A DNA stretch of 64,000 bases from an uncultured cyanobacterium (GCA_963703315.1 OY969811.1:3936001-4000000), one strand, 5' to 3'. Counted from the stretch's first letter, positions 45,989 to 57,061 are shown. Made by a program: numbers and translations. Notes: generated from the sequence alone by a model not told the origin.

Positions 45989-46276
45989 TTAAAACTGACT
46001 CTCAATATCTCTAGATTGATGGAGAATACGCACAATCTCAATAGAATTTTCTGCTTGCATATAGAAAATAGTGTATGGCTTGACTGGAAAGCTACGCAAT
46101 CCTTTTGAAATATCGTTTCTAACCTTACCCATTGATGGAAACTGGGCAATCATAGGGAATTTATCAAATATCCTTGCCAGTATGAGATCAGCAGCTAATG
46201 AATCATGTTGAGCGAGATATACCCATATATCCTCAAGGTCGCCATCTGCTTGCCGAGAAATTTTAAAGCGATTCAT
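45989..46276 (-). CDS. RelE/ParE family toxin
   Basis: ISRQADGDLEDIW, FPSMG..R and IVRILHQSRD motifs. Confidence 0.9.
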   Translation of the reverse strand: MNRFKISRQADGDLEDIWVYLAQHDSLAADLILARIFDKFPMIAQFPSMGKVRNDISKGLRSFPVKPYTIFYMQAENSIEIVRILHQSRDIESQF

Positions 46277-46619
46277 TGCTATTCTGCATCAGCCGACTTT
46301 GACCACGAGTTTTGATGTTTGCTAGCAATGTAGGCATCATATCCGCATGGTATTCATTGTATTCACCATTTTTAAGTTGTGAAATGCCGACATTAATATC
46401 TTGTTGAAGTGCTGCAAGTTTAAGTGCGCGGAGTTCTTCCTCTGCTTGCTGAACGCGATCGCATATTGATTGAAAGGCTGCGGCATCTTGGACTACGACT
46501 TCGGCTTTGCCATTGACGGTCAGAACCATTGGTGATTTTGTGGCTTTGATCTGTTCGATCAAGCCTTTAGCGTTGCGTTTGAAGTCGCTAAGGGATTGGA
46601 TATTTTTAAGGTCGATCAT
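46263..46619 (-). CDS. Phd/YefM-family antitoxin with ParD-like C-terminal extension
   Basis: IQSLSDFKRN...PMVLTVNGKAEVVVQD, then LAALQQDINVGISQLKNGE; overlaps the toxin start. Confidence 0.85.
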   Translation of the reverse strand: MIDLKNIQSLSDFKRNAKGLIEQIKATKSPMVLTVNGKAEVVVQDAAAFQSICDRVQQAEEELRALKLAALQQDINVGISQLKNGEYNEYHADMMPTLLANIKTRGQSRLMQNSNESL

Positions 46620-46757
46620 AATTATCAAATCACTAAATTTAGATCTAATTTAATGATAATCGATCTTTATTTTAATTTTGTGAATTTTTGATATGCGATC
46701 TAGGGGTGAGGCGATCGCTAAAATACGCACAAAAAAAGGGCGCTTAGCGCCCTTTTT

Positions 46758-47858: not shown

Positions 47859-48896
47859 ATGATTTCTGCCCCATCTAAATTACAGCAAAAATTCGCTGAA
47901 CCTTTAACTATTGGCAATGTGATCCTCAAAAGTCGGGTGTTGCAATCGCCATTGTCGGGGGTGACAGATTTGGTGTTTCGGCGTTTGGTACGGCGCTATG
48001 CCCCAGATTCAATGCTCTATACAGAGATGATCAGCGCTACGGATCTGCATTATCTCAAGGCTTTACCCAAGTTAATGGAGATCGATCGCCACGAAACACC
48101 GATCAGTATTCAATTATTTGATTGTCGTCCTGATTTTTTGGCAGAGGCAGCGCAAAAGGCGGTACTAGAGGGAGCCGACACCGTAGACATTAATATGGGT
48201 TGCCCTGTTAATAAGATCACCAAAAAAGGTGGCGGCTCATCGTTATTACGTCAGCCTGAACTGGCGGCGCAAATTGTGAGATCAGTGGTTGAGGCTGTTG
48301 ATATTCCTGTGACTGTGAAAACGCGCATCGGTTGGGATGATGCCGAAATTACGATCTTGGACTTTGCGAAACGCATGGAGGATGCGGGAGCCAAGATGAT
48401 CACTGTTCATGCGCGAACGCGATCGCAGGGCTATACAGGTAACGCTAAGTGGGAATGGATTCGTAAAGTTAAAGAGGTGCTGACGATACCTGTAATCGCC
48501 AATGGTGATATTTTTTCAGTGGAAAATGCGATCGCCTGTTTAGAGCAAACGGGAGCCGACGGGGTGATGTGTTCGCGTGGCACATTGGGCTATCCCTTTT
48601 TGGTGGGGCAGGTTGATCATTTTTTAAAAACTGGTGAATACTTGCCAGAGCCGACCGTAATTGAATGTTTAGAAGTTGCCAAAGAACATTTACAAGGGCT
48701 ATGGGATTACAAAGGGATGCGCGGTATCAGTCAATCACGAAAACACATGACTTGGTACGCGAGGGGTTTTGCAGGAGCGGCGGTGTTGCGCGATCGCCTC
48801 TGTCGGATTGAGTCCTTGCAAGATGGAATGGATTGTCTCGATGGGGCGATCGAGGAGTTGCAGGTTCTTGTTCGTCAATCCAAGCTAATCCACTAA
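47859..48896 (+). CDS. dusB: tRNA-dihydrouridine synthase DusB
   Basis: SPLSGVTD, DINMGCP, VTVKTRIGWD, VHARTR and IANGDI motifs. Confidence 0.93.
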   Translation: MISAPSKLQQKFAEPLTIGNVILKSRVLQSPLSGVTDLVFRRLVRRYAPDSMLYTEMISATDLHYLKALPKLMEIDRHETPISIQLFDCRPDFLAEAAQKAVLEGADTVDINMGCPVNKITKKGGGSSLLRQPELAAQIVRSVVEAVDIPVTVKTRIGWDDAEITILDFAKRMEDAGAKMITVHARTRSQGYTGNAKWEWIRKVKEVLTIPVIANGDIFSVENAIACLEQTGADGVMCSRGTLGYPFLVGQVDHFLKTGEYLPEPTVIECLEVAKEHLQGLWDYKGMRGISQSRKHMTWYARGFAGAAVLRDRLCRIESLQDGMDCLDGAIEELQVLVRQSKLIH

Positions 48897-48972
48897 TGTT
48901 GTCAGTTGCTTTGCCTTCTACGTTAGTGACGTAACGAATAAGGTTTTCAATTTGGGCGATCGGCATGGCGTT

Positions 48973-49805
48973 AAACTTCACAACGCAGGGACAATTTATC
49001 GGTGAAGGCGAAAAGGGTTTAAATTAAAGACCAGTAGGGGCAAAGCATTCCCACCGCAATCTATCAATTTCTAAACCATTTTAATTCGGGAATGCTTTGC
49101 CCTAAACCTCGCAACGCAGGGACAATTTATCGGTAAAAGCGAAGAGGGTTTAAATTAAAGACCAGTAGGGGCATAGCATTCCCACCGCAATCTATCGATT
49201 TCTAAACCATTTTAATTTGGGAATGCTATGCCCAAAACCTCACAACGCAGGGACAAGCGATCGGTGAAGGCGAAGAGGGTTTAAATTAAAGACCAGTAGG
49301 GGCATAGCATTCCCGCCACAATCTATCAATTTCTAAACCATTTTAATTCGGGAATGCTATGCCCAAAATCTCACAACGCAGGGACAATTTATCGGTGAAA
49401 GCGAAGAGGGTTTAAATTAAAGACCAGTAGGGGCAAAGCATTCCCGCCACAATCTATCAATTTCTAAACCATTTTAATTCGGGAATGCTCTGCCCAAAAC
49501 CTCGCAACGCAGGGACAATTTATCGGTAAAAGCGAAAAGGGTTTAAATTAAAGACCAGTAGGGGCAAAGCATTCCCGCCACAATCTATCAATTTCTAAAC
49601 CATTTTAATTCGGGAATGCTCTGCCCAAAATCTCACAACGCAGGGACAATTTATCGGTAAAAGCGAAGAGGGTTTAAATTAAAGACCAGTAGGGGCAAAG
49701 CATTCCCGCCCCAATCTATCAATTTCTAAACCATTTTAATTCGGGAATGCTATGCCCAAAACTTCGCAACGCAGGGACAATTTATCGATAAAAGCGAAGA
49801 GGGTT
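48973..49805. repeat. Tandem array of a 131-bp unit (6 full copies + partial), each carrying a GTAG-REP-like hairpin
   Basis: CAACGCAGGGACAA anchors at 48981, 49112, 49243, 49374, 49505, 49636 and 49767. Each full unit has GTAG-GGGCA(A/T)AGCATTCCC...GGGAATGCT(T/A/C)TGCCC. Confidence 0.95.
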
Positions 49806-49869
49806 CAGCATTTGCGTTTTGAGATTGTATTGGAGAATAAAAATATTGGCGCAAATGCTAAACCCCTAC
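49801..49869 (-). repeat. Oppositely oriented GTAG-REP-like hairpin closing the array
   Basis: GGGTTCAGCATTTGCG...CGCAAATGCTAAACCC-CTAC. Confidence 0.8.
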
Positions 49870-49898
49870 AGTTTTTACATTTTCTATCTTGTTGATTT

Positions 49899-52376
49899 CT
49901 AATTGCCCCAAATTCTATTCAACACAGTTTGAATCTTTTTCTCAAATCTCTCGATTAGTTCACGGTTAGCATTAACAAGAGATTGCTCGGCTTCGATTTC
50001 AGCAACTATTGCTTTTTGGGTTTCAATCGCTGGAACTGGAATCTTTACTTCAAATAATTGAGAGCGATTAATTTTTGGAATACTTGCTCTCTCATAATAA
50101 CCACGAATCCTCTCATTAAAAGCATTTGAAAGCATATATGTAGATAGATATGTGATGTCAATTTTGGAGCTATCAGGTACTAATGGGTACATATCAGAAC
50201 TACAATAGCCACGCATATTAACAACAGACAATTTATTGAGATAAGGACGGATTTTGCTGTATAGCAAACGTTCACCAGAAAACTCATAAACTGGTCCACT
50301 TACTCTCTGGCTTTCGGCTGTTTCTATTTTTAGTAACTTTCCTGTGTTTGATTCGATACTGTCAGCACCGAAGTACGGAAGTGAAGCATCTATGTTTACA
50401 TTAGGGGTAATTGCTGCACCAAGTGTGCAGATTTTACCAAGCTCTACCATTTCCCAATCAGGAGAGATCGCTATATGAGGTCGATAATTATCAATGACAG
50501 CACGAGCGCCGTTGATGACTTTTTGGTAGCCTTCGATTTCGGTGACTATTTCTTTTTGGATAGCGATCGGTGGCAAAGGGATTTGCACACCTCGAACAAT
50601 TTCACTGTTCAGATTATTGACGACTCCACCTGTTGCAGAACGCTTAAATTGTTGAAACACAAAATCTGAGCCAAGAATGAGATAGAAAAAATCTTGATCT
50701 ATCTGTTCAGACTGATTTCGCAATAGAAGCCATCCGTCATGAATACATCCATCAATAGCCATAATATAAGGTCTTCCAAAACTCATTGAGTTAGAAAGAA
50801 TAAAATCACCCTTTTTTACAGCACGGGATTTTTTAGCACCTTCTGGAATGATGCGTTCTTTAGTTTTAGTAATGTATTTTGAGCCTACTTCTGCATCTCC
50901 AATCTTGATCCAATTTATACCGTCAGGTGAATCAGTAATAAAATCATGAATTGGTCTAGGAGATCCCCCTCTTTCTATAGTGCAAATCTCACCAATTGAA
51001 ATTAGAGGATAGCTTAAACTAGCGTTAGCTGCTACATCTCGATATCTCTCCCCACTCAAATTATATTCACCATTAGCCGCAATCCTAGACTTCGGCACAA
51101 CCAAAACCCGATCATCATTCGCAATTCCTAATTCGTAATTCGTAATTGACAATTCGTAATTCGTAATTTGCTCCAACACAAAAGGCAAATCATCCCCCTC
51201 AACCGCCCGCCTTTGAGCGCCCAAACCGAATCCATCATTCTCGACCTTAAAAAATGCAATCTTATCCGTCTTCTTCGCCAAAGACTTATCCAAGATTAAA
51301 ATCGAAGTCTTCACCCCAGAATACGGATTAAAAACCCCAGCAGGAAGCGAAATCACCGCCACCAGCGAATTCTCAACCAACATCTTCCGCAAATCCTTAT
51401 AAGCAGTCTGACTCTGGAAAATAATCCCCTCAGGCACAATAATCCCCGCCCTACCCCTAGGCGAAAGATGTTCCGCCATATAGTCCACAAATAGAACCTC
51501 ACTCCGCTTCGCCTGAATCGAAAACCGCTTATGGGGCTTAATCCCACCCTTCGGCGACATAAACGGCGGATTTGCAAGGATCACATCCGCAAACTCATTC
51601 CACTTATCCTCAGAAGTCAACGTATCGTACTCAGCAATTTGCGGACTCTTAAAACCATGCAAATAGAGATTTACCAACGACAACCGCACCATATCAGGCG
51701 AAATATCATAACCTCTAAAATTAGTCGCCATCAGCCCCTTCTCATCAGGCGTAAGCGTACTATTCCCCTGAGCATCCAGATTAGACCGCAAAATATGCTT
51801 ATACGCCGAAATCAAAAAACCCGCCGTACCACAAGCAGGATCGAGAATCACCTCACCCTTTTGCGGACGCAAAACCTCCACCATAAAATCAATAATATGG
51901 CGCGGCGTGCGGAACTGCCCCGCATCCCCCTGCGAACCCAACACCGACAGCAAATACTCAAACGCATCCCCCAACCGTTCCGAATGATCGTAGGTAAACC
52001 CATCAATCACCTTCAAGAAACTCTTCAGCGTCTCAGGATCGCGATAGGGAAGATACGCATTCTTAAAAATATCTCGAAACAACGCAGGAATCCCCGCATT
52101 CTGCGGCATCGTGCTAATCCCCTCACTGTAAAGGCTCAGCAACTCATGACCGCCCACCGTCGGACTCATCAACCGTCCCCAACCAAACTTCGCAAACTCA
52201 CCCGCAAAAAAACTGCGATCGCCCCCCAACTCCTCCACCTCCGCATCCATATCATCCATAAACTTATAGATGAGAGCGATCGTAATCTGTTCCACTTGCG
52301 ACTTCGGATCAGGAACCTTCCCCACCAAAATGTCACGAGCAGTATCAATACGGCGTTTAGTTTCAGAATCAAGCAT
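49899..52376 (-). CDS. hsdM: Fused type I methyltransferase-specificity subunit (HsdM-HsdS)
   Basis: GQFRTP, DPACGTAGFL (motif I) and NPPF (m6A motif IV), then two TRDs bounded by IPLPP..Q / IPVP...Q conserved helices. Confidence 0.92.
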   Translation of the reverse strand: MLDSETKRRIDTARDILVGKVPDPKSQVEQITIALIYKFMDDMDAEVEELGGDRSFFAGEFAKFGWGRLMSPTVGGHELLSLYSEGISTMPQNAGIPALFRDIFKNAYLPYRDPETLKSFLKVIDGFTYDHSERLGDAFEYLLSVLGSQGDAGQFRTPRHIIDFMVEVLRPQKGEVILDPACGTAGFLISAYKHILRSNLDAQGNSTLTPDEKGLMATNFRGYDISPDMVRLSLVNLYLHGFKSPQIAEYDTLTSEDKWNEFADVILANPPFMSPKGGIKPHKRFSIQAKRSEVLFVDYMAEHLSPRGRAGIIVPEGIIFQSQTAYKDLRKMLVENSLVAVISLPAGVFNPYSGVKTSILILDKSLAKKTDKIAFFKVENDGFGLGAQRRAVEGDDLPFVLEQITNYELSITNYELGIANDDRVLVVPKSRIAANGEYNLSGERYRDVAANASLSYPLISIGEICTIERGGSPRPIHDFITDSPDGINWIKIGDAEVGSKYITKTKERIIPEGAKKSRAVKKGDFILSNSMSFGRPYIMAIDGCIHDGWLLLRNQSEQIDQDFFYLILGSDFVFQQFKRSATGGVVNNLNSEIVRGVQIPLPPIAIQKEIVTEIEGYQKVINGARAVIDNYRPHIAISPDWEMVELGKICTLGAAITPNVNIDASLPYFGADSIESNTGKLLKIETAESQRVSGPVYEFSGERLLYSKIRPYLNKLSVVNMRGYCSSDMYPLVPDSSKIDITYLSTYMLSNAFNERIRGYYERASIPKINRSQLFEVKIPVPAIETQKAIVAEIEAEQSLVNANRELIERFEKKIQTVLNRIWGN
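51123..51171. repeat. In-frame AATTCGT heptamer array inside hsdM-S
   Basis: AATTCCT AATTCGT AATTCGT AATTGAC AATTCGT AATTCGT AATTTGC, encoding QITNYELSITNYELGI. Confidence 0.9.
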
Positions 52377-52380
52377 TTTT

Positions 52381-52503
52381 AATTAATTACGAATTACGAA
52401 TTATCAATTACGAATTGCAAAATCGTAAATTGGTAGAATATTATAACTCCTAAGCCTTACCCCCAACCTCCACCTCGTAATTCGTAATTCCTAATTCGTA
52501 ATT
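52381..52503. repeat. Inverted pair of heptamer arrays (site A)
   Basis: (AATTACG)n arm, a spacer of about 60 nt, then CCACCTCGTAATTCGTAATTCCTAATTCGTAATT. Confidence 0.9.
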
Positions 52504-52509
52504 AAATAG

Positions 52510-52746
52510 ATGAAAACCATACCAGTAGACAACCTCACCACCAACTTCATAAACCTCCTAGAAGAAATCGCCATCACAGGCGACCCCATCGAACTTGACT
52601 GGCAAGGCAAACGTTTTCAAATTCTGCCAGTACAGAAAAAAAGCCGACTCGACAATCTTGTACCCCGCCCCGAAGTATACATTGGCGATCCTGAAGATCT
52701 GGTAAACATCTCTTGGGAGCATGAAATAAACCTTGATTTACCTTGA
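52510..52746 (+). CDS. Phd/YefM-like antitoxin (VapB-type), orphaned
   Basis: NFINLLEEIAITGDPIEL...GDPEDLV pattern; its end overlaps a VapC-like start. Confidence 0.75.
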   Translation: MKTIPVDNLTTNFINLLEEIAITGDPIELDWQGKRFQILPVQKKSRLDNLVPRPEVYIGDPEDLVNISWEHEINLDLP

Positions 52747-52768
52747 CACGAAAATCATAAATTCGTAA
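52733..52768 (+). pseudogene. 5' stub of a VapC/PIN toxin truncated at a heptamer array
   Basis: TTG ATT TAC CTT GAC ACG = MIYLDT, the PIN N-terminal motif, overlapping the antitoxin stop. The frame then runs into AATTCGTAA and stops. Confidence 0.6.
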
Positions 52769-52778
52769 TTCGTAATTT

Positions 52779-53186
52779 CTAATTCTTAACTACAAGGCGC
52801 TCAAAATCAGTTACCGAAATAATGATAGTTTCTAACATTCTTTGCGCTTCTGAGAAATCTTTGTCACCTGTAATAAAAAAATTGGCTGAACCTGCGATCG
52901 CGCAAGCTAAGAATTTTGCATCTTTTTGATCGCGAGGAAAATCAATTTCTATCTCTACATCAATGCAATTTGTCATTAAATCAAACACCATCAACCACTT
53001 TTCGATAATTTCTTGAGGCAGCTTAAATTTCGGACGACCGATCACAGCTTTATATTCTGTCAAAATATCTGACGAGACTATCCACTCAAATTCTTCATGC
53101 TCAGCAACAAACAAAATAACCTGTTCAGGAGCGCGATCTTTTAGAATTGCTGACACCAAAACATTCGTATCAATAACAACTCTCAT
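52779..53186 (-). CDS. PIN-domain toxin
   Basis: RVVIDTNVLVSA, RDQKDAKFLACA and ITGDKDF motifs. Confidence 0.9.
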   Translation of the reverse strand: MRVVIDTNVLVSAILKDRAPEQVILFVAEHEEFEWIVSSDILTEYKAVIGRPKFKLPQEIIEKWLMVFDLMTNCIDVEIEIDFPRDQKDAKFLACAIAGSANFFITGDKDFSEAQRMLETIIISVTDFERLVVKN

Positions 53187-53425
53187 AAACCTTGACGATA
53201 AGATTCAATCTCAGCCATAATTTCAGCTTCAGAAATAGCTTGTACTTGAGGTAAGCCCTGAGTCTCTTTAAAAAGAGCGCGTAGATCAAAAGGTAAAATC
53301 TTCTTCCTGCGATTAGCTTTAAGCACAATTACCCTCACTTCACAGCCCTCCAATTCTGTTCTCAGAGAATCAGGAACTTGAATTTTTCCATTAGACACAG
53401 TAGTTTTAAATTCTTCAGCAAGCAT
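53183..53425 (-). CDS. Putative antitoxin (AbrB-like N-terminus) for the PIN toxin
   Basis: NGKIQVPDSLR and ISEAEIMAEIESYR; 4-nt overlap with the toxin gene. Confidence 0.7.
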   Translation of the reverse strand: MLAEEFKTTVSNGKIQVPDSLRTELEGCEVRVIVLKANRRKKILPFDLRALFKETQGLPQVQAISEAEIMAEIESYRQGL

Positions 53426-53426
53426 A

Positions 53427-53541
53427 ATAATTACGAATTACGAATTAAAAACACATTATATCGCCTAGATCTGTCATCCTTAATCCCAATTCCCAATTCG
53501 TAATTCGTAATTCGTAATTCCTAGTTGAATAATTCGTAATT
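53427..53541. repeat. Inverted pair of heptamer arrays (site C)
   Basis: AATTACGAATTACGAATT ... AATTCCCAATTCGTAATTCGTAATTCGTAATTCC. Confidence 0.9.
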
Positions 53542-54058
53542 AACTAATTAAACCCTCAACCAACTTCATCGGCAAATAAAGCCTCATCGGATCTTGTTTA
53601 AATCTTTGAAATCCATACTTTAAATAAAAACTCGCAGCATCCTCATCCAAAGCCTCGGCAATGACAGCCAAAGATGCAATCTGACTTGATACTTCAAAAG
53701 ACTTCATCAGCGCATCAATTAACAATAGTTCGCCAAACCGTTTCCCTCTTTGTTGCCGATCAATTCCCAAACGACCGAGCAAAGTCGCTGGTAATAAAGG
53801 ATATCGTGGCAAAGACTTAGCAAAAGTACCATCAAGAGCCGTCACCTCCACAACAAAAGCCGAAAGAGAGTAATAGCCCAAGATATCTGTTTCAAGTTCA
53901 TCTTCTTGCGCGTCAACCAAAACAAACACAGTCGATATCTTCCTTTTGAGATCCTGTGTAGCCTGCTTGCGAAGGTAATTATCTAGACTATCTTTACCAC
54001 AACAAAAACTAGAGCGCCGATGCTTGCGACTATCCAAAGGCTCGATTTTGAGAACCAT
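53540..54058 (-). CDS. GNAT acetyltransferase toxin (TacT/AtaT/KacT-like)
   Basis: FCCGKDSLDNYL, LLGRLGID..QRGKRFGELLL and AASFYLKYGF motifs. Confidence 0.9.
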   Translation of the reverse strand: MVLKIEPLDSRKHRRSSFCCGKDSLDNYLRKQATQDLKRKISTVFVLVDAQEDELETDILGYYSLSAFVVEVTALDGTFAKSLPRYPLLPATLLGRLGIDRQQRGKRFGELLLIDALMKSFEVSSQIASLAVIAEALDEDAASFYLKYGFQRFKQDPMRLYLPMKLVEGLIS

Positions 54059-54345
54059 TAAGCCCTCATGGTTTGCTTATATCTGACCGCCGCAGCATTT
54101 AGAGCCTCATTAGGCAAAGGTGGATTCAGCAAAGCCTCCACAAAAAGTTCACTATCTTCTCGATTAAGCTTGAGAGTTTGATGCTTCGCAATCACCGTAT
54201 AGGCAGCCTCCTGTAAACTAGCAATCACAAAATCAGTGAGAGTACGCCCCTCCAAATCAGCCGCCTTTTGCCACATAGCCTTAATCTCAGGGCTAACACG
54301 AGCTTCCAGCCTCGCCATTGTCTTCGCAGGTGTTGCAGATGTCAT
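54058..54345 (-). CDS. DUF1778 RHH antitoxin (TacA/KacA-like)
   Basis: ARLEARVS...AADLEGRTLTDFVI...FVEALLNPP.PNEAL pattern; ATG 54345 taken as start. Confidence 0.9.
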   Translation of the reverse strand: MTSATPAKTMARLEARVSPEIKAMWQKAADLEGRTLTDFVIASLQEAAYTVIAKHQTLKLNREDSELFVEALLNPPLPNEALNAAAVRYKQTMRA

Positions 54346-54371
54346 AGCATAATATTGAAATCTACATAAAT

Positions 54372-54392
54372 TGTACGGCAATCAGACGTACA
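54372..54392. promoter_or_regulatory. Probable RHH antitoxin operator palindrome
   Basis: TGTACG-GCAATCAGA-CGTACA just upstream of the DUF1778 gene, resembling GTAC-based operators of DUF1778-GNAT modules. Confidence 0.6.
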
Positions 54393-54402
54393 TTAATTAT
54401 TT

Positions 54403-54512
54403 AATTACGAATTATCAATTACGAATTAAGATTTTGATTGCACAGCAAATGAAACAATACCCAAAAAACACCACCTCGTAATTCGTAATTCCCAATTCGT
54501 AATTGAATAATT
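54403..54512. repeat. Inverted pair of heptamer arrays (site D), direct repeat of site A
   Basis: AATTACGAATTATCAATTACGAATT ... CCACCTCGTAATTCGTAATTCCCAATTCGTAATT. Confidence 0.9.
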
Positions 54513-57061
54513 CAAGCCATAAACCTTTCCAACGCCACAAACTGCCTCACATACTCAGGAATCAAATCACGATATGACTTCGGCACAGCCTTAAAATCGT
54601 TTGTTGAAAAGAACGCATTTGTTGCTAATTCCGTGTAATTCTTGCCCTCAATAATTTTCCGAATCTGGTCATTAGTCACATAAGCCTTAAAGTAATTTCT
54701 AATCGCAGGAATAGACTCGTTAGGCTGATAATTTGCCACAAACTTTTCAAACTCCTCCTCCAATAACTCATCCTTCAACTTAAATCTGGGTATTAACCCA
54801 AAAATCTTTTCTAAAATCTCGCGCAACTCCAACCGCCGATCCACCGCCGCCGCTTTACGCAACTTCTCCAAGGTATAAGACTGTTCAGAATCAGCAAAAA
54901 ATTTCTCATTCACATAAGCGATCGCCTTTTCCCAATGCCCGACCTCGATCGCCGCCGCTAACTCGCGATCATTGCGAATCACCTCCTCAAATCGCTCAAA
55001 ATATAAGCGATCGATTTTCATGCCACCATAGGCGATCGCCTCTTCCTTGAGGCTCAATAAAATATCGCTGCCAAGATGCTCATAACTGCCAATCCCTTTC
55101 ACCGTCTCACTATCATCATCGCGATCGCCTCCAGTCCCACTTTGAGGATTGGCTTTGGGCTTCGGCAACGCCAACACCTCATCATATTTAAAATCTTTCT
55201 CAAAATATTCACAGTTTGCAAAGAAATCAAATAATTTAAAAGCAGTCTTCTCTGGCTCCCTGATACTGCCCTTGAGATCCGCATCATGCAAATCATTCAA
55301 AAAATTATGCCTACGAGTCCCCCTTCCCTTAATTTGAATAAAATCTGTTGGTGAAAAAATTGGACGAAATAGCCCCAAATTCAACAAATCAGGGCAATCA
55401 TAGCCCGTCGTCATCATCCCCACCGTCACACATACCCGCGCCTTGCTCGTCCGATAGGTTTCCAAAAAGTTCGCCGTGCCGCGTAAATTGTTATTCGTGA
55501 AATTACTCGTAAACTGTTGAGCGTCCGTAATTTGTGATGTCACCTGTACTGCAAAATCCGATTGATATCGATTCGGAAATATCCGATCCGCCATCTCATT
55601 TAAAATTTGGGTCAACGTGGTCGCATGAGGCTGACTCACAGCAAAAATAATTGACTTGCCAATCTCACCACTAATCGGATCGCGAAAAGCCGTCTCTAAA
55701 AACGTCTTACAAAAAAGTTGATTGGTCGCAGGTGAAAAAAAGCGCTTCTCAAATTGCCGAATTTTAAAACTCTCTTCCGTCTTTTCACCTTCCTCATCCG
55801 TAAACTCCACCACAAAACCTTGTTTCGACAAAAGCTCAGTCGTTACTTCTGTACGCCCATCCACCACCGTCGGCTGAATCAAAAAGCCATCTCTAACCCC
55901 ATCATTCAAGCCATAGGTAAAAGTCGGAATCCCATCCTCACAGCCAAAAGTGCGATAGGTATCCAGCATCATCCGCCGCTCAGATTCTCGCGGATCTTTA
56001 GTCGTGGGCTTAGCTCTGTCAAATTGCTTCAGATAATCCTTCGGTGTCGCCGTTAGCCCCAATTTGTAACCAATAAAATACTCAAATACTGCCCGTGAGT
56101 TCCCCCCAATCGAGCGATGCGCCTCATCGGAAATTACCAAATCAAAATCTGTTGGCGAAAAGCGATCGCGATATTTATTACCCGTCAGCAATGACTGCAC
56201 CGTAGTCACCACAATATCCGCAAGTCGCCAATCATTCCGATTTTCCTTATAAATCGCCGTCTTATAGTCATTTTTAAGCAATAGATCAAAAGCTTTCTTA
56301 GCTTGTTCCTCTAACTCAATGCGATCGACCAAAAACAACACCCGCCGCGCATTTCCCGTCCGCAAAAACAACTTGATCACCGCCGCCGAAGTCAGCGTCT
56401 TCCCTGTCCCCGTCGCCATCTGAAACAAAAAGCGATTTTTCCCCGCGTTTACTGCATCTTGTAAAGCCGCGATCGCCTGTTTTTGATAACCCCTCAAAAA
56501 GCGCAACTTATTCTTCTCAATAAAACTCGCTCTTTCCAGTTCATTCTTCCATCCTGCATTATTCTCATAATCAGGATATTGCGTCAACACCACATAATTA
56601 TCATCAATCACCTCATCCACAAGACGTTGCGGTTCAGCAATCACTTTCTGATAACCCATCACCGATTGAGGCGTAGGGAAATTTGTAATTTCATAGGGAT
56701 TCCCTTGTTCCAAATCCCAAAAATAATGCAAAGTTCCATTGGATAGAATCACGAAACGGCATTTTTGAGACTTCGCATAATCTCGCGCCTGTTCTTTCCC
56801 CACAAGCGGATCAAGATCCCCCGCCTTTGCTTCCAAGACAATAAACGGAAAGCCCTTTTCATTCAGCAACAAAAAGTCAATAAAGCCCTTGCTTGTCTTC
56901 TCGAAATCCTCCCCAAACTCATCTAAATCCAAAGATGTAATCTGCGTCCCTGCTTCAAGCGCTATATTCGCAGGTTGCCCCCCTTCCGCAAAAAAACGCC
57001 AACCCGCCGACTCAAGCAACCTATTAATCTTAATTCGGGCTGTAGCCTCATTATTGGTCAT
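54512..57061 (-). CDS. hsdR: Type I restriction endonuclease subunit R (EcoEI/EcoAI-like)
   Basis: Nuclease D...LEAK, MATGTGKT, DEAHRS, LTATP, TTGYDCP and QIKGRGTR motifs. Confidence 0.92.
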   Translation of the reverse strand: MTNNEATARIKINRLLESAGWRFFAEGGQPANIALEAGTQITSLDLDEFGEDFEKTSKGFIDFLLLNEKGFPFIVLEAKAGDLDPLVGKEQARDYAKSQKCRFVILSNGTLHYFWDLEQGNPYEITNFPTPQSVMGYQKVIAEPQRLVDEVIDDNYVVLTQYPDYENNAGWKNELERASFIEKNKLRFLRGYQKQAIAALQDAVNAGKNRFLFQMATGTGKTLTSAAVIKLFLRTGNARRVLFLVDRIELEEQAKKAFDLLLKNDYKTAIYKENRNDWRLADIVVTTVQSLLTGNKYRDRFSPTDFDLVISDEAHRSIGGNSRAVFEYFIGYKLGLTATPKDYLKQFDRAKPTTKDPRESERRMMLDTYRTFGCEDGIPTFTYGLNDGVRDGFLIQPTVVDGRTEVTTELLSKQGFVVEFTDEEGEKTEESFKIRQFEKRFFSPATNQLFCKTFLETAFRDPISGEIGKSIIFAVSQPHATTLTQILNEMADRIFPNRYQSDFAVQVTSQITDAQQFTSNFTNNNLRGTANFLETYRTSKARVCVTVGMMTTGYDCPDLLNLGLFRPIFSPTDFIQIKGRGTRRHNFLNDLHDADLKGSIREPEKTAFKLFDFFANCEYFEKDFKYDEVLALPKPKANPQSGTGGDRDDDSETVKGIGSYEHLGSDILLSLKEEAIAYGGMKIDRLYFERFEEVIRNDRELAAAIEVGHWEKAIAYVNEKFFADSEQSYTLEKLRKAAAVDRRLELREILEKIFGLIPRFKLKDELLEEEFEKFVANYQPNESIPAIRNYFKAYVTNDQIRKIIEGKNYTELATNAFFSTNDFKAVPKSYRDLIPEYVRQFVALERFMA

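Follow-up and report, generated by a model that had tools for sequence, protein, structure and literature searches.

Heptamer-armed hairpins as candidate joints between exchangeable toxin-antitoxin modules in a cyanobacterial type I restriction-modification operon

The DNA analysed was a window of 64,000 nucleotides, to which all coordinates refer, and the block studied within it covers positions 52377-54512. The genome concerned (G000) is a single contig of 4.57 Mb that most likely belongs to a Pseudanabaena-type cyanobacterium, since the best-matching named relatives of its methylase in protein comparison were those of Pseudanabaena and Tumidithrix (96-98% identity). The block was found to lie within a type I restriction-modification (R-M) operon on the minus strand, which reads hsdR, site D, a TacA and a GNAT gene, site C, an 80-amino acid gene and a PIN toxin gene, site B, an inverted 78-amino acid gene followed by six codons from another PIN gene, then site A and, last, the fused hsdM-hsdS gene. 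The product of hsdR (849 amino acids; 54512..57061, minus strand) was identified by PF04851 and PF13588, and that of hsdM-S (825 amino acids; 49899..52376, minus strand) by PF02384 and PF01420. Sites A to D are arrays of the heptamer AATTACG and its reverse complement.

Profile searches bore out the claim of an earlier, sequence-only reading of this DNA that toxin-antitoxin (TA) pairs lie between hsdR and hsdM-S. The module nearest hsdR comprises a TacA/DUF1778 antitoxin (95 amino acids, PF08681; 54058..54345, minus strand) and a TacT-like GNAT toxin (172 amino acids; 53540..54058, minus strand), the latter with a weak match to PF13508 (E 2e-4, under the cut-off). It is followed by a putative antitoxin of 80 amino acids (53183..53425, minus strand) coupled to the gene of a PIN-domain toxin (135 amino acids, PF13470 and TIGR00305; 52779..53186, minus strand), a pair also present in L084, L040, L041 and L042. 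The third module is a remnant, consisting of a putative antitoxin gene of 78 amino acids running opposite to the operon direction (52510..52746, plus strand) and the first six codons only of its partner PIN toxin (52733..52749, plus strand), the remainder of which is deleted up to site B; an intact PIN gene partners the 78-amino acid gene in G034 and other relatives. Both small putative antitoxin genes, which had carried labels in the earlier reading, were without a family match (Pfam and NCBIfam for the 78-amino acid gene). The whole TA block had no match among plasmid records, ten of which matched through distant GNAT/DUF1778 genes only, with homologues annotated GNAT beside DUF1778. Contigs of run X1, which may be the source data of the window, span 52387-53584 and 53575-54786 with zero differences to the assembly.

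Inverted heptamer arms around a spacer were identified at sites A (about 52381..52503), C (53425..53541) and D (54398..54512, starting from the hsdR stop codon). The spacer of site A contains a TATAAT box on the operon strand, which may act as a promoter, that of site C was unlike all other spacers (array, fold and spacer comparison), and that of site D belongs to a class common to G013, G023 and G351. Site B (52760..52791) is a lone arm matching the array, overlaps the last codons of the 135-amino acid PIN gene, and is probably the remnant of a hairpin after deletion. The 11-mers of the array were counted 17 times in 52377-54512; 2000 base shuffles gave 0.001 on average and never more than 1. 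RNA folding gave z scores of -5.95 for A, -3.33 for C and -5.82 for D, with 0/200 shuffles equally good, and no fold for the single arm of B (z -0.05). An array stands at every junction, at three of them as inverted arms that can fold, and the near-identical arms quoted earlier for A and D were found at both sites. A known RNA family was ruled out for the arrays, Rfam returning no family at its gathering score and a single chance match of 24 bits against the 90 needed. Read directly, an arm is open in all frames on the operon strand and has stops in all frames on the complement, a property compatible with insertion at stop codons and with being tolerated in loops of proteins.

The array had been thought to occur nowhere else in the window, and this was not upheld, as a solo arm of 46 nt was found in frame within hsdM-S (51123..51168, minus strand), where the methylase domain nears its end and forms a variable loop. 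This in-frame arm is also present in G005, G013, G023, G351 and L083 and was not found at that position in G009, G032 and G034. It was rejected as a cause of the M-S fusion, fused genes of ~830 amino acids being the commonest form and nearly all armless among 160 loci, and as a point of specificity swapping, identity to G351 and L083 continuing past the arm to 51042. Across the genome, 27 sites carry at least one 11-mer and 16 carry two or more; five of these 16 multi-copy sites fall in the 7.2-kb operon, where 0.025 would be expected (Poisson P 8e-11), and the other 11 lie outside it, mostly at ordinary genes, for example in what we take to be the rpsK/rpoA, zwf/opcA, lptA/lptB and rplJ/rplL gaps (some of these names were confirmed on homologues). 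Arrays confined to the block or reserved for TA genes were rejected, on this count and on the genus, TA-gene and viral surveys given below. AATTACG is the most frequent tandem 7-mer of G000 (25 of 376 runs), and an 18-nt array was present in 37 of the 48 genomes of the genus, its reversed control in 0.

A likely origin of these arrays, overlooked in the sequence-only reading, was identified in a small cassette encoding a four-helix-bundle protein, of the S23p family (PF05635/TIGR02436) described in passages of PMC4990558 for ORF-bearing intervening sequences (IVSs) of 23S rRNA. Genes matching TIGR02436 occur in 23 of the 48 genomes of the genus; no PF05635/TIGR02436 gene was found in the window or in the G000 genome. 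Heptamer-like end runs were seen by eye at 28 of the 30 TIGR02436 loci returned (the best 30 of 45 matches), being clear in most of the 28, weak in L046, L052 and L065, and absent at two divergent loci. One near-identical group carries AATTACG arms at 9/9 loci, while other groups carry other heptamers; for all groups together, with heptamer labels assigned by eye, heptamer type requires eight changes on the protein tree, the least possible, near-copies making the labels cluster. Near-identical units of the AATTACG-type cassette were found at four unrelated places. Two of these are behind conserved genes (hisI and one other), the third is within the orthologous hsdS of G005, the cassette taking the place of the second recognition domain there (in G066 it has decayed), and the fourth is directly behind hsdS in L083. 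The cassette takes the forms arm-gene-arm and hairpin-gene-hairpin. Three states occur at the hisI junction, namely a single hairpin (G066), hairpin-gene-hairpin (G034) and the unit in inverted form (G028, G013), the second of these sharing its layout with the hairpin-TA-hairpin arrangement of the hsd operon. Because filled, empty and inverted states exist at hisI, solo hairpins are plausibly what remains once the four-helix-bundle gene is lost, and the TA modules plausibly fill the slot that this gene holds elsewhere, the gene itself being the likely source of the hairpins. The family also showed a weak match to the retroelement protein Avd (E 7e-4).

Alleles of the hsdR/hsdM-S junction were sought in 61 genomes at the DNA level, in 401 genomes of the class at the protein level and in 48 genomes with the YefM/YoeB module as query. 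Together with G000 itself and with L083 and L084, which the methylase comparison added, this gave 11 cyanobacterial alleles, each counted once, which are kin and not independent events (G000, G005, G009, G013, G023, G034, G066, G351, L084, the Tumidithrix allele L083, and G032, which is split across two contigs). Four TA modules were found in six combinations and in fixed order: TacA/GNAT with 80-aa/PIN and the inverted remnant (G000), TacA/GNAT with YefM/YoeB (G013, G023), YefM/YoeB alone (G005, G351, L083), the inverted pair alone (G009, G034), YefM/YoeB with the inverted pair (G066, the pair being truncated in G032) and 80-aa/PIN alone (L084). The TA pair of L084 lies within one pair of arms, a layout unlike that of the other alleles, and G021 has lost the hsd genes and kept TacA/GNAT with the inverted remnant. 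An arm was present at each of the 12 kinds of adjacency in the 11 alleles, and in 11/11 an arm starts at, or a few bases from, the hsdR stop. None of the 11 junctions is empty, as an A x D recombination was predicted to leave it; in G314, a cyanobacterial copy of greater divergence (78% identity), the junction is tight and free of arrays. It had been anticipated that cargo would vary between orthologous loci and that breakpoints would coincide with the arrays, and both hold here, the switch points between combinations falling at arms.

In pairwise comparison, alignments of at least 140 bp ended in or beside arms in most cases, which alone is weak evidence because the pairs are not independent and the arms also mark gene ends; BLAST alignments also extend through similar arms. 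The spacers, compared in 22 extracted rows with one spacer entered twice, were more telling. Class A always adjoins hsdM (9 alleles). Class S follows hsdR in five of the alleles (G005, G009, G034, G066, L083) and is seen again, at the inner joint, in two-module alleles. The GNAT-YefM joint of G023 aligns with the hsdR-YefM joint of L083 (z 26.5), and the YoeB-PIN joint of G066 aligns with the hsdR-PIN joint of G034 over both arms and the spacer between them and on into the following gene. We read the two-module alleles as two one-module alleles that would have fused in the first arm, and G351, in which a class D spacer is coupled to YefM, as an apparent switch in the second arm. As far as arm B, the PIN start is truncated identically in G000 and G032, which then continue with different modules; the truncation at B lies 10 nt away from the arm. 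Breaks within genes were found to abut arms in the PIN genes of G021 and G031, at partly duplicated four-helix-bundle genes (G021, G032), and in G005, where the second hsdS domain is replaced by the four-helix-bundle gene. No array abuts the two internal deletions in the PIN gene of the inverted pair (L013, L044) or the IS insertion in G032.

The same junction was surveyed at 160 methylase loci (the best 80 of 573 and the best 80 of 589), of which 148 show both genes: 85 are tight, 8 have 61-300 bp and 55 have more than 300 bp between them. Scanning of 57 of the 83 cargo ORFs called identified 19 KilA-N, 17 PF05635 (5 above the cut-off), 3 PDDEXK_3, 2 Y1 transposase, 2 DUF3800 and 2 YhcG ORFs, together with one HicB-domain and one nucleotidyltransferase ORF, each alone. 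A period-7 run was present in the gap at only 3 loci beyond the four cyanobacterial ones, two of which flank a four-helix-bundle gene, and both complete TA pairs and arrays at each joint were confined to the cyanobacterial alleles among the junctions surveyed. The hsdR/hsdM-S junction is a general landing place for small genes at which arrays are not required, other phyla having array-free cargo there.

Array sites of the genus were sampled at 89 positions, from 30 loci and 60 regions picked among the matches listed, with 603 further matches beyond that list; gene calls rest on 38 short flanking ORFs that were checked and on long ORFs judged by eye. Four of the sites touch a four-helix-bundle gene, two a Uma2 gene and two a TA gene (that of the hsd operon, and one behind PIN); about 22 lie inside long ORFs and the remainder between ordinary genes, ~81 of the 89 being at or in ordinary genes. 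In G000, 18 other TA-like genes were located by tblastn or by eye, and none of them lies within 600 bp of an arm. The suggestion of a system dedicated to defence genes was largely set aside on these two results. Arms were likewise absent from the distant GNAT/TacA pairs (0/10) and from 80-aa/PIN pairs outside the operon (0/3), and the TacA/GNAT module was found with arms only at the hsd operon or its remnant and at no other hairpin. The inverted 78-amino acid gene is preceded by a short arm at 9/9 other loci, in the orientation that would insert the gene backwards. A TA pair that is presumably MazEF-like has entered the pflA/adhE operon junction of G000 with no arrays, at a position where G028 and G016 have a hairpin.

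With moderate confidence, we propose that solo hairpins of an IVS-like cassette serve as portable homology through which host recombination stacks TA modules. The arrays would be the arms of a small mobile cassette, an IVS-family four-helix-bundle gene between inverted AATTACG runs, accompanied by gene-less hairpins, and both kinds of unit would settle at stop codons within operons. In this cyanobacterial lineage, AATTACG hairpins would have come to adjoin TA modules at hsdR/hsdM-S. All arms resemble one another over 20-45 bp, so each could act as portable homology with every other; a crossover between the arm behind the last gene of one allele and the arm behind hsdR of another would string modules together, direct arms would give rise to deletion, and inverted arms to flipping. 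Recombination anchored in flanking homology is a familiar process, and the likely agent here would be host recombination, either of incoming DNA anchored in hsdR or hsdM or by slippage at the hairpins, and not an integrase. TA addiction may then retain the stack. The coincidence of arms with module borders does not prove crossover, because stop codons and promoter edges are natural borders of modules.

That the hairpins are a passive decoration appears rather unlikely to us. The TA modules would then have moved by other routes, with hairpins inserted later at stops or AT-rich promoter edges, and any effect would be on the RNA, through RNase III cutting or the stability of segments, and not on DNA exchange. 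The predominance of ordinary genes among the 89 sampled sites is what this would lead one to expect, as are the array-free cargo of other phyla, the armless GNAT/TacA (10/10) and outside 80-aa/PIN (3/3) pairs, and the same hairpins between or inside phage core genes, seen by eye in 11/11 stretches on 7 viral contigs of 41-60% G+C. Independent insertions, however, would not give one allele, behind hsdR, the very spacer that another has at its inner joint, and the common PIN truncation followed by different modules in G000 and G032 also argues against them. We regard as unlikely, too, a dedicated system in which the cognate four-helix-bundle protein, acting in trans, by itself or together with an enzyme of the host, recognises its heptamer hairpins and excises, inverts or inserts anything between two of them, TA modules included. 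The near-identity of the AATTACG group at four unrelated sites suggests that it moved recently, hairpin-gene-hairpin and single-hairpin states both exist, and the family is weakly akin to Avd. Heptamer type tracks protein group with the least possible number of changes, but this match shows no specificity because near-copies inherit gene and arms jointly. G000 itself is without a TIGR02436 gene, armed TacA/GNAT is confined to the hsd operon or its remnant, and passages of PMC4990558 give no catalytic activity as known for the family. The wider claim that IVS-family proteins each drive the integrase-free mobility of cassettes with their own hairpins across many phyla and phages is doubtful to a similar degree; if true, a cassette system would be loading addiction modules into a restriction operon at this locus.

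Excision by either route might leave circles or a joint of A with D, and neither was among the joints listed for the X1 contigs (all but four). The lack of a circle among them counts against the dedicated system, and that of the A x D joint, like the lack of an empty allele, against the host-recombination reading; the reads were in the form of contigs only, with small shares in runs X3-X20, and though these contigs confirmed the assembly, rare circles would be invisible in them. Joints between arms in X2-X4 have short sides and probably stem from array loci elsewhere. A joint in X4 that leads from 52377 to 54551 has ambiguous letters between and is no proof of an A x D product. An integron cassette array lacking its integrase (a CALIN) would explain gene pairs between direct-repeat hairpins, TA cargo and variable content, and is in our estimation highly improbable. 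The best TIGR02249 match for IntI in G000 reached 32 bits against a cut-off of 265, and PF00589 matches were found only near 1.755 Mb and 4.368 Mb. No paired attC cores, the consensus of which we take to be RYYYAAC...GTTRRRY, were present at any of the four sites, one lone core being found in C by consensus pattern. The TacA and YefM modules have their own promoter regions, and hairpins occur throughout housekeeping operons. CALINs are common and half are in genomes without IntI, according to passages of PMC4889954, so the absence of IntI alone does not exclude one. These passages also describe variable modules between direct-repeat hairpin sites and TA cargo, as seen here; in contrast, switches at this locus occur in either arm, an inversion is seen, and sites also lie in frame within genes. 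Of the earlier idea of integron-like, integrase-independent cassette capture, the variable cassette content and the breakpoints at arms stand and a dedication to defence largely does not; the integron features IntI, paired attC cores and promoterless modules are missing.

The arrays were also compared with other known repeats. STRR heptamer repeats of cyanobacteria were reportedly described by Mazel in 1990, and the G000 runs resemble them in being dispersed tandem 7-mers (25/376 runs) that are mostly intergenic. REP/REPIN sequences are short palindromic repeats of intergenic regions and are linked with a small gene of their own, RAYT, a known HUH nuclease; RAYT-like Y1 genes account for 2/57 cargo ORFs at the same junction, whereas we know of no catalytic site in the four-helix-bundle protein. 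Type I R-M loci are defence islands with accessory genes between the hsd genes, in keeping with the inserts of more than 300 bp at 55/148 orthologous junctions; the difference lies in the complete TA pairs and their joint arrays, present in the cyanobacterial alleles only. For TAACTGA heptamer repeats, passages of PMC4679880 propose translational regulation and leave mobility open, and they describe short intergenic tandem heptamers near stop and start codons, with stops in all frames on one strand and open frames on the opposite one, across distant phyla, as here. Neither a four-helix-bundle gene nor an exchange of modules is connected with the repeats in those passages (PMC4679880). Passages of PMC4990558 describe IVSs with the same protein family whose complementary ends form a stem-loop around the ORF and whose sporadic occurrence suggests horizontal transfer. 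Stem-loops were likewise found at A, C and D (z -3.3 to -6.0). The present units differ in standing in protein-coding operons, hence in mRNA, instead of rRNA, in having heptamer arrays as ends, in the frequency of gene-less hairpins and in bordering TA modules. Among the literature matches listed, from which subscription journals are mostly absent, no description was found of heptamer-armed four-helix-bundle cassettes in operons or of hairpin-bounded TA stacks; what the allele series adds is solo hairpins in the apparent role of joints between exchangeable TA modules.

Heptamer repeats and the large four-helix-bundle family are both without an accepted function, and this locus links both to the stacking of TA modules while supplying natural filled, empty, inverted and chimeric alleles. 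If the four-helix-bundle protein is needed, a new route of gene-cassette mobility would be at hand; if it is not, the debris of a selfish element would become a recombination joint for the turnover of defence islands. As a minor observation, the right arms of A and D are more alike within G000 than between strains, a likeness of a few bases only, given no weight here, that might reflect conversion.

The genes neighbouring the type I R-M operon were found to differ from strain to strain (flanks of loci L031-L038), indicating that the operon is mobile as a whole. The methylase of this operon was also identified at locus L355 of G351, where its first 200 residues are 100% identical. G351 is assigned to a different family, so that the match is the result of either a recent transfer or a mis-binned contig. 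A small antitoxin-like gene present only as a remnant in the window (48727-48981, minus strand) is intact behind hsdS in the relatives G009 and G032, so the stacking of toxin-antitoxin (TA) modules extends to the opposite end of the operon as well. A Phd/ParE TA pair situated 3.3 kb from the operon (45989-46628, minus strand) was found to be without heptamer arrays.

At the orthologous loci L114, L097 and L119, the junction between hsdR and hsdM-S was found to be occupied by PDDEXK_3 genes of the GxxExxY type. Degenerate inverted end repeats were identified at those of L114 and L097, and a fourth locus, L137, has kept the ends but lacks the gene itself.

In two relatives (L076 of G005 and L358 of G066), a four-helix-bundle cassette was found in place of the fused M-S gene's second target-recognition domain. 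The resulting protein has a single such domain, and its recognition site might be symmetric. M-S genes of approximately 650 aa are also present in many relatives. At L080 (G032, 1500-2600) and L039 (G021, 900-1550), the four-helix-bundle gene was found to be partially duplicated in tandem, with both duplications starting directly behind an arm.

AATTACG hairpins were also found inside or between core genes of phages, Mu-like and others (L360-L370), with one phage contig of 9.9 kb having five such sites. On L236, a G+C-rich metagenome contig, a complete AATTACG hairpin was found in frame, approximately 1250-1350 behind the hsdM start, occupying the same methylase loop as the hsdM-S arm of the window.

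Directly behind hsdM-S in the window (48985-49870) lie approximately six tandem REP-like units of 131 bp with internal palindromes. The same element was found to have invaded heptamer hairpins of G013, another relative, and G351, and is dispersed across most genomes of the genus.
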